Positions 6,618-9,594 of a stretch of 29,939 bases of DNA are shown in pieces (position 1 is the first letter of the stretch; each line of letters begins with the position of its first letter). This DNA is from Planctomycetota bacterium (GTDB lineage: Bacteria > Planctomycetota > J058 > JAJDCP01). The position numbers and the translations under genes were made by a program. Below the pieces are notes generated by a model. The model had not been told where the DNA came from. It saw nothing but the letters and a program-made list of their open reading frames with translations, and made no database searches. The stretch lies in NCBI GenBank assembly GCA_029260765.1, contig JAJDCP010000004.1, forward strand, positions 1 to 29,939, read 5' to 3'.

Positions 6618-7943
6618 GTGACATTTCTGTCCCCCCAGGAACGTGAAGAGCTCGAGCGGCTCATCACACACTACCGCACACTGCTCGAGAGCCACGCGGC
6701 CAGCCCGTTCGACCTGCACAACCTGGCCCTGGCCTACTACCGCAAGGGGGATTTCGAACAAGCCTACCGCAGGTCGGTGCAGTCCCTGGAGATCGAGAAA
6801 CCGGGCGAGCGGGCGCGCACTCTGCAGCTGCAGGGCCTGATCTTTCGAGCAGTCGGTGAGCTCGAACGCGCCGCCGAGGCTTTCAGCCTGGCACTCCACG
6901 ACGGCGGACCCCTGCCGGAGGTGCTGTTCGAGCGCGCAGTGACCCATCATCAACTCGACAACCTGCCCGCAGCGGAGGCGGATTTCGAGCACTCTCTGGA
7001 GCTGGAGAAGTCCCTCTCTTGCTACTACAACCTCGGCGTCATCTACGTGCTACGCAAGAAATGGACGCAGGCCGTTGAGTGCTTTGCCAGCTGCCTGGCC
7101 CTCGACCCCTTCGGCCGCGACGACTATATCGCCCTGCTGGTGCAATGTGGCCGGGCTGAAGCGCGGCAAGAGGTCTACGCGCAGGGGCATCGCATGAAGA
7201 ACCTGCTCGGCGTGCTCGGCAACGAGCTGCGTGGCCTCGAGCGGGACCTGGCTCCTCAGCTCACGGCTTCAGGGAGCGAACGTATCGACCAGCTGCGTGG
7301 GCGCCTCGAACGCATCTACCAGGACATGGTGCAGTACCTGAAGATCCTGCAGCAGGACGGCGATCCCCCGGACCTTGTCGACGTCAACGAGATCGTCGCC
7401 AAGGTCTTGTTCCTGGCCTCGGGCTCATTGCGGGGCATCGAACTGAAGACGCAGCTGGCCGAAGATCTGCCGGGCATCGTGGCCCCACCCAACCAGGTCT
7501 CCGAGATTCTCTTGAACATCCTGATCAACGCCATCGAAGCGCTCGATGGACGTCCTGATGCCCAGATCCAGGTCAGCAGCGCCGCAGAAGGCGAGCTGGT
7601 CTGTGTTGAGATCGTCGACAACGGGCCCGGGCTGCCCGCCGACGTGCAGCGGCTGTTTGAGCTGGGCTACACCACCAAAGAATTCGGCAGCGGTATCGGA
7701 CTCGCGCACGCACACAACCTGGTGCAGGCGCTCGGGGGCACCATCAACGCCGGCCACCGGCCGGGAGGAGGCGCCCACTTCCGGGTGGTGTTGCCGCTCG
7801 CCTCCGACGGCGGAGCCGGCCTCGAGGGGCTTGCGATCCGCGGGCGCTTCGCTGAAGACCTCAAGGAACTCTTGATTCGGAACGACCCGCCCCCGAAACT
7901 GGAACCCGAAGACCCCAAGGGAGACAGCCATGGCAGAGTTTGA
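6618..7943 (+). CDS. TPR-repeat sensor histidine kinase (cytoplasmic; HisKA plus HATPase_c)
   Basis: Probable GTG start at 6618, 7 nt after GGGAGG; the ORF opens further upstream at 6399. TPR-like helices ([29 protein letters not shown]...). H-box [19 protein letters not shown]-box [12 protein letters not shown]1 VDNGPGL and G2 GSGIGL. There is no TM segment and no receiver domain. Confidence 0.75.
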
Positions 7944-9594
7944 TGCGGCGCGCGAGCGCTGGGAACAAGAAGCAGCCCAAGGGCGGACGCGCGACGCCCT
8001 GTTCACCACCCTCTCGATGAAGCCGATCCCGCTGCTCGGGCAGCCGCAGAACCTGACGAGCGAGCAGCAGAAAGACTACCTCGACAAGCTGGGTTTTCCC
8101 GGGCAGTTCCCCTACACACGCGGGCTCCATCCCAACCTCTACCGCGGGCGTCTGTGGACGCACCGGCAGTTCGCAGGCTTCGGCAACGCCCGCGACACCA
8201 ACAAGCGCTACCACTTTCTACTCGAACGCGGGCAGACGGGCCTGTCGGTCGCCTTCGACATGCCGACGCTGATGGGCTACGACGCGGACCATCCTCTCGC
8301 TGAGGGAGAAGTCGGACGCTGCGGCGTCAGCATCTCCAGCCTCGCAGACATGGAGGTGCTGTTCGACGGCATCCCGCTCGGCGAAGTCAGCACCTCGATG
8401 ACCATCAACGGCCCGGCGGCTGTGATCTGGGCGATGTACATCGTGGCCGCAGAGAAGCAGGGAGTCGACAAGGCGAAGCTGCAGGGCACACTGCAGAATG
8501 ACATCCTCAAGGAATACATCGCGCAAAAAGAGTACCTGTTTCCGCCCAAGCCTTCGATGCGGCTGATGGTCGACACCATCGAATACGGCACCAACGAGAT
8601 GCCGTTTTGGAACACAGTCTCAGTCAGCGGCTACCACATCCGCGAAGCCGGCTCGACCGCCGCACAAGAGTTGGCCTTCACCCTGGCCGATGGCTTCGCC
8701 TATGTCGAGGCCTCGATCGAGCGCGGGCTGGACGTCGACGCCTTTGCGCCGCGCCTGTCCTTCTTCTTCAACAGCCACTCCGACTTCTTCGAAGAGATCG
8801 CCAAGTTCCGCGCCGCCCGCCGTATCTGGTCGCGGCGCATGCGGGATCGGTACGGCGCCAAGAATCCCCGCTCCTGGATGCTGCGCTTCCATACCCAGAC
8901 GGCGGGCTGCAGTTTGACGGCACAACAGCCCGAGAACAATATCGTGCGTACGGCGCTACAGGCCCTGGCAGCTGTCCTCGGCGGCACGCAGAGCCTGCAC
9001 ACGAACTCGATGGACGAGACGATGGCGCTGCCGACCGAGAAGGCGGTCGAGATCGCCCTGCGCACCCAGCAGCTGATCGCTGAAGAGAGCGCCGTGCCCC
9101 ACACGGTCGATCCGCTGGGAGGCTCGTGGTTCGTCGAGCAGATGACCGACTCGATGGAGGCGCAGGCCGAGGAATATTTCGCCAAGATCGATGCCCTGGG
9201 TGGGGTCGTGCCTGCCATCGAAGCCGGCTTCTTCCAGAGTGAGATCGGTGAGGCATCCTATGCCTTGCAGAAAGAGTATGAAAGCGGCAAGCGCGTCATC
9301 GTCGGCGTCAACAAGTACCGCCACGACGAGGACCTTGGCGCTCGGCAGCTCGAGACTCTGAAGATCACGCAGGAGACCGAGAACCTCGCGATCCGAGCCC
9401 ACAGAGCTGTGCTTCAGCGTCGCGACGCCGACAAAGTGCGGCGCGGCCTCGAGGCGGTGCGGCAGAGCGCTCGCTCGGACACCAACCTGATGCCGGCGCT
9501 GGTCAATGCAGTGCGCGAGTACGCGACCCTCGGGGAGATCTGTGAAGCCCTGCGGGAGGAGTTCGGGACCTACACTGAACCGGCAGCGTTCTGA
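7930..9594 (+). CDS. Acyl-CoA mutase large (substrate-binding) subunit, methylmalonyl-CoA mutase family N-terminal TIM-barrel domain only, non-MCM active-site variant
   Basis: ATG at 7930 after GGGAGA; it overlaps the kinase gene by 14 nt. A 554-aa product with MCM-family hallmarks: [85 protein letters not shown] and [23 protein letters not shown]. It has no C-terminal B12-binding Rossmann domain. Aligned by eye to recalled MCM, the substrate Tyr (RGPY) is His and the Arg of EFMVRNTY is Gln. Confidence 0.8.

Follow-up and report, generated by a model that had tools for sequence, protein, structure and literature searches.

Which substrate is served by an acyl-CoA mutase large subunit encoded with no partner subunit beside it, and what is to be made of an unexpected histidine in its N-terminal part, are the questions raised by the gene at 7930–9594 on a contig of a Planctomycetota bacterium (assembly GCA_029260765.1, contig JAJDCP010000004.1). 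The window, by which we mean the whole stretch of DNA analysed, comprises 29,939 nt with 65% GC and appears to be one whole short contig. An earlier note, made from the letters of the window, had described a stand-alone large subunit with His in place of the Tyr that determines specificity in methylmalonyl-CoA mutase (MCM), and had proposed a possibly distinct substrate specificity on that ground. The gene, its Gln at the second specificity site, its overlap with an upstream kinase gene and the missing partners are all real; the histidine is real too, but was misplaced. By alignment, the residues at the two specificity sites are Phe and Gln, and the mutase is probably the large subunit of a two-subunit, adenosylcobalamin-dependent isobutyryl-CoA mutase (ICM) of the IcmA kind, which would interconvert butyryl-CoA and isobutyryl-CoA.

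As judged from profile matches, the gene encodes the acyl-CoA mutase large subunit that the earlier note had recognised, genuine and full-length. PF01642 (MM_CoA_mutase), the sole Pfam domain in the 554 residues, matches with an E-value of 2.4e-219 and 729.6 bits (cut-off 22.1) over profile positions 23–512 of 512, and TIGR00641 (“methylmalonyl-CoA mutase N-terminal domain”) gives 743 bits against a cut-off of 303.8. The GC content by codon position (0.64/0.44/0.83) is the pattern of a real gene in a window of this composition. Antisense open reading frames (ORFs) overlapping the gene were judged to be high-GC artefacts. The start at 7930 is supported by the Shine-Dalgarno-like motif upstream of it (Table 1) and by homologs that align from residue 1–5. 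The counterparts of Y243, H244, E247, R283, H328, Q330, N366 and E370 of MCM are identical in the mutase and in 120 of 120 homologs. The nearest PDB structure is HcmA of 2-hydroxyisobutyryl-CoA mutase (HCM; 4r3u, E 4e-158, 49% identity), followed by MCM; identity is 43–46% to solved MCMs (Propionibacterium shermanii 1REQ, human 2XIJ) and 51–57% to split large subunits with Tyr and Arg at the specificity sites. The exact mutase is not among the loci listed in a genome scan; another copy of it is found on a 4-kb Logan contig.

Two sites are treated as specificity determinants in this family, with Tyr and Arg marking MCM (Jost et al., 2015, as cited in PMC7238569). They were located in the mutase by gap-free HMMER alignment to 1req_A, 5req_A and 4r3u_A, at 43–49% identity. 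Within the aligned region, 1req_A and 5req_A differ at a single position, SEQRES residue 88, which reads RQ-Y-AGF in the former and RQ-F-AGF in the latter. We take 5req_A to be the Y89F mutant of P. shermanii MCM and equate SEQRES residue 88 of both chains with Tyr89. At this column the mutase has Phe81 and 4r3u_A has Ile, in keeping with the known Ile90 of HcmA. At the Arg207 column it has Gln199, as the earlier note had it. The two sites are 118 residues apart in the mutase (81 to 199) and in MCM (89 to 207), as they are in HCM (90 to 208). Gln199 further corresponds to residue 762 of 4xc6_A (IcmF with a 20-aa tag) and hence to native Gln742, by a coordinate offset that assumes no gap.

Aligned in this way, the specificity residues are Phe and Gln, the classical pair that marks ICM; it is F80/Q198 in IcmA and F598/Q742 in IcmF. 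The canonical Tyr/Arg was not seen, in agreement with the broader claim that these residues are not those of MCM. The histidine that had seemed to occupy the first site is His67. Its tyrosine counterpart in RGPY had been taken for Tyr89, whereas 1REQ and 5REQ place Tyr89 in RQ-Y-AGF, and the gap-free alignment puts His67 opposite Tyr75, a residue presumably located in the N-terminal CoA-binding loop. The odd histidine is thus a product of aligning Tyr89 to RGPY, and once this is corrected the mutase reads as an ordinary ICM-type large subunit. When specificity is called across the family, Tyr89 should be anchored in RQ(Y/F/I)AGF and not in RGPY.

Table 1. Features of the mutase locus and its surroundings (positions in the window).
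Feature	Position	Strand	Basis or description
TPR and HATPase_c histidine kinase, 441 aa	6618..7943	+	Pfam TPR_1/TPR_2 and HATPase_c
Shine-Dalgarno-like AAGGGAG	7917..7923	+	6 nt before the mutase ATG, within the end of the kinase gene; read from the sequence
Acyl-CoA mutase large subunit (substrate-binding TIM-barrel), putatively of ICM type	7930..9594	+	554 aa, without B12-binding domain
His67 (CAT), in RGLH; MCM Tyr75 site, not Tyr89	8128..8130	+	Gap-free alignment
Phe81 (TTC); MCM Tyr89 site, first specificity determinant	8170..8172	+	Alignment to 1req_A, 5req_A and 4r3u_A
Gln199 (CAA); MCM Arg207 site, second specificity determinant	8524..8526	+	EYIA-Q-KEY versus EFMV-R-NTY
Basic-tailed membrane protein	9599..12109	+	Basic low-complexity tail of roughly 180 aa, one hydrophobic helix, large domain
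CoA_binding_2/Succ_CoA_lig protein, like the alpha subunit of NDP-forming acyl-CoA synthetase	26598..27884	+	Pfam; TIGR02717 at 197 bits, below cut-off

In the mechanism that we envisage, Phe81 and Gln199 would take the positions at which MCM uses Tyr and Arg to grip the free carboxylate of methylmalonyl-CoA, so that the pocket would suit an uncharged short acyl chain. The large subunit would pair with a separate, B12-binding small subunit (PF02310, about 135 aa) whose gene would lie in another part of the genome, and cofactor loading would fall to a GTPase of the MeaB type together with an adenosyltransferase. Butyryl-CoA and isobutyryl-CoA would be interconverted by moving the thioester carbon in the radical 1,2-shift that is usual for the family.

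A characterised system of similar design is IcmA/IcmB of Streptomyces cinnamonensis. Its large subunit is of about 560 aa and likewise lacks a B12 domain, its Phe and Gln are likewise 118 residues apart, and in neither case is the small-subunit gene adjacent (from tblastn for the window; in Streptomyces, icmA and icmB do not lie together). The likeness is one of signature and layout, and the mutase differs from IcmA in being translationally coupled to a histidine kinase with tetratricopeptide repeats (TPR). IcmF of Cupriavidus metallidurans (4XC6) shares the Gln at the Arg207-equivalent position, and the same reaction is expected, but its architecture is different. Native IcmF, 1093 residues long (PMC10481361), joins a B12 domain, a MeaB-like GTPase and the mutase domain in a single chain, whereas the window protein is the mutase barrel only. 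Similarity to IcmF (E 3e-90) is much lower than to HCM or MCM, and the score with the IcmF profile NF045497 is 381 bits, under the cut-off of 1500. The absence of a fused B12 domain, which ethylmalonyl-CoA mutase (ECM) possesses, is also the sole point that speaks against membership of the ECM family.

The clade to which the mutase belongs is very large, with members in Chloroflexota, Ignavibacteriota/Bacteroidota, Actinomycetota, Acidobacteriota, Bacillota, Planctomycetota and archaea. Phe/Gln occupies the specificity sites in all of the 120 closest database proteins (64–87% identity) and in all 80 orthologs (58–67% identity) whose loci, taken as species-level representatives, were among the matches listed in a genome scan; these 80 span about ten phyla in addition to archaea. 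In a neighbour-joining tree of 114 family members, calculated without IcmA of S. cinnamonensis, the mutase falls in a clade that has Phe/Gln wherever the column is aligned. Three plasmid homologs from Streptomyces (L095, L096 and L097) had been considered as stand-ins for IcmA and were rejected as they proved to be split Tyr/Arg proteins of MCM type, 52–55% identical to the mutase. They are annotated “methylmalonyl-CoA mutase family protein”, and in L095 a B12-binding protein is encoded adjacent to the mutase homolog.

Several points weigh against an ICM. The nearest neighbours in the tree without Phe/Gln are split Tyr/Arg large subunits, a second Phe/Gln group is found elsewhere in the tree, and the grouping with characterised IcmA follows from the residue signature and not from phylogeny. 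We know of no assayed member of the clade. Within the single 29.9-kb contig, the search brought up neither a cognate small subunit nor MeaB nor an adenosyltransferase. Finally, IcmF turns over isovaleryl-CoA and pivalyl-CoA at a low rate, so Phe/Gln is compatible with related uncharged C5 substrates.

The last point leads to the possibility that the Phe/Gln pocket accepts another uncharged branched acyl-CoA, e.g. isovaleryl-CoA or pivalyl-CoA, as in pivalyl-CoA mutase (PCM), or a longer chain. This we regard as unlikely. The side activity of IcmF and the lack of any assayed clade member known to us would leave room for it, as would the variability of loop positions 74–78 within the clade, but native PCM reportedly differs from ICM at the specificity sites, and the ortholog neighbours include enzymes of C4-type beta-oxidation. 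Within 4 kb of the mutase gene at the 80 listed loci, the recurrent neighbours are the B12 small subunit (41 loci), MeaB (14), acyl-CoA dehydrogenase (11), adenosyltransferase (9), enoyl-CoA hydratase (8) and 3-hydroxyacyl-CoA dehydrogenase (7), and acyl-CoA synthetases are also near the mutase at the loci L002 and L005. This company fits short-chain acyl-CoA metabolism.

That the histidine itself confers a new specificity, by replacing the specificity Tyr, is very improbable. His67 exists, and its loop, RGLHPNLY, is unlike the RGPYxTMY of MCM and HCM. It aligns, however, with Tyr75 and not with Tyr89, the latter site being Phe. At the Tyr75 site, His predominates in the clade: the 120 closest proteins have His in 71 and Tyr in 46 cases, and the 80 orthologs in 58 and 14. 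Clade members in canonical MeaB/B12 operons are among those with His, as seen in Carboxydothermus pertinax, the ortholog of which has the residues IH/F/Q and shares an operon of textbook layout with MeaB, adenosyltransferase, acyl-CoA synthetase and the B12 small subunit. His is also found at this site in 14 of 74 Tyr/Arg proteins of MCM type among family-wide representatives at 50% identity, and it does not track specificity because it is present in such relatives too. From these alignments, His67 is a common variant of the N-terminal loop, away from both specificity sites, and the distinct specificity proposed for it is not supported.

Residue pairs that differ from both common types do occur in the family. 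Among 150 representatives at 50% identity (P0128–P0277), about 100 have Tyr/Arg or Phe/Gln and the remainder other pairs, e.g. Val/Val, Ile/Trp, Val/Gly and Ile/Gln. The fast mode of MAFFT may have produced some of these pairs as alignment artefacts, and others may represent uncharacterised specificities; the hunt for new specificities belongs there. The enzyme of the window matters little by itself, being a member of a very large clade that fits an established ICM signature.

That the gene encodes the large subunit of a split MCM, of the kind known from archaea and some bacteria, is highly improbable. The name is suggestive, in that relatives are deposited as “methylmalonyl-CoA mutase family protein”, and the nearest relatives without Phe/Gln are the split Tyr/Arg proteins mentioned above. 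MCM and these split subunits share the fold and the radical-catalysis residues with the mutase. Both members of the carboxylate-binding pair are gone, however, Tyr89 being replaced by Phe and Arg207 by Gln. There is no fused B12 domain as in MCM, and the MCM equivalog NF006944 gives 615 bits, short of its cut-off of 876. The public “methylmalonyl-CoA mutase” names in this clade are probably wrong with respect to the substrate.

Equally hard to credit is an orphan large subunit that has no B12 partner and is inactive as a mutase, or re-used together with the kinase. It is true that six-frame tblastn across the window gave no match when queried with the B12-binding small subunits of two orthologous loci, one MeaB and one adenosyltransferase; the earlier note had remarked on the lack of an adjacent small subunit and MeaB. 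The closest relative, at locus L001 (GCA_030428695.1), also lacks all three within 10 kb. The longest contig on record for the protein, however, has 29,939 bp, the very length of the window, so that the window is apparently one short contig in full and partners missing from it say nothing about the genome. The catalytic residues are intact, and isolation of this kind is normal in the clade. Of the 80 listed loci, 53 have at least 4 kb of flank on either side (flanks of roughly 8 kb were fetched); a small-subunit gene lies downstream in 31 of these, and none is present within the fetched flanks in 22. MeaB is nearby in 17 of the 80. With about 40% of well-flanked loci lacking an adjacent small subunit, standing alone is less remarkable than had been thought, and the genes for the two ICM subunits are unlinked in Streptomyces as well. 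A small subunit lies downstream of the mutase at L005, and the kinase-linked locus L004 (GCA_029260755.1) has kept one, of 139 aa, 199 bp downstream of the mutase gene.

An HcmA-like 2-hydroxyisobutyryl-CoA mutase large subunit is barely credible: HcmA is the best solved relative, has the two-subunit architecture and shares Gln at the Arg207 site, but its residue at the Tyr89 site is Ile, and the conserved Phe117 is directly preceded by an Asp (Asp117 in HcmA numbering, which contacts the substrate hydroxyl), where the mutase has Phe81 and Ala.

An ICM large subunit being the preferred reading, the gene upstream of it deserves comment. The kinase gene is co-oriented with the mutase gene and runs 14 nt into the start of the latter, in line with the operon suggested in the earlier note; the two are probably co-transcribed. 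The GTG start at 6618 was chosen by alignment to a 445-aa ortholog and is preceded by a Shine-Dalgarno-like GAAGGGAGG. The H-box reads GHRMKN, and the N, G1 and G2 boxes are recognisable. The kinase is directly upstream of the mutase at L001 and L004 as in the window. At L001, mutase and kinase are 87% and 71% identical to those of the window and the genes overlap by 8 nt; at L004, identities are 67% and 37%, and a 313-bp gap separates the genes.

The kinase family is rare and its pairing with the mutase is lineage-specific. It is absent from all 80 other listed loci, scanning metagenomes with an alignment of the kinase gave no orthologs, and a protein search with the kinase returned a relative at 70% identity plus weak matches. 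One could imagine that this cytoplasmic TPR sensor kinase is a functional partner that controls, or is controlled by, B12-dependent isomerisation of butyryl-CoA and isobutyryl-CoA, forming a lineage-specific module. The persistence of the pairing down to 37% identity in the kinase and 67% in the mutase would be in keeping with this idea, which we nevertheless consider unlikely: three genomes are known, no response regulator is adjacent at any of the three loci, and the kinase may instead be a neighbour retained by descent. The coupling is best seen as a minor curiosity.

In the spacer between kinase and mutase at L004 (7700–7990), a CACAGATT-like octamer is repeated in opposed arrays (TTTCACAGATTACACAGATT ... 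AATCTGTGTAATCTGTG); these may represent a repeat element or serve as an operator. Divergent from the kinase–mutase pair in the window is a 531-aa ORF (5029–6624, minus strand) without a Pfam or NCBIfam match; a 470-aa gene occupies the same position at L001.

On the downstream side, the basic-tailed membrane protein that had also been counted as part of the operon does not share the standing of the kinase. Its probable start, ATG 9599, follows the mutase stop by 5 nt, and it has no Pfam or NCBIfam match. It is not next to the mutase at L001, L002, L004 or L005 and thus is not a conserved partner; it probably lies outside the mutase system. Comparison of the window with its relatives by tblastx with a score filter revealed an ortholog of the CoA_binding_2 gene at L001 (12169–13434, 68–72% identical), 0.5 kb downstream of the mutase and separated from it by a short opposite-strand ORF. 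The short distance at L001 implies that the block of about 17 kb between the two genes in the window (9595–26597) results from an insertion or rearrangement. The block holds the basic-tailed membrane protein, an FG-GAP protein (13170–13784), a giant hemopexin protein, AHSA1 and GNAT proteins and a molybdopterin oxidoreductase with its 4Fe-4S subunit. The giant is a 1450-aa ORF (15551–19903, plus strand) whose family matches are limited to three hemopexin repeats close to the C-terminus (E 2.4e-19).

A scan of the window with Rfam gave no family, including no cobalamin riboswitch, no tRNA was found in it, and its promoter and terminator signals were at background level. Near the start of the window, a 942-aa ORF (462–3290, minus strand) resembles the eukaryotic major vault protein (MVP), with Pfam matches to MVP_shoulder (E 4.5e-14), Vault_3 and, below cut-off, Vault_4. 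Compared with MVP chains in the PDB by phmmer, it gives an E-value of 7e-23 over residues 466–868. To our knowledge, vault-like proteins are uncommon in bacteria.

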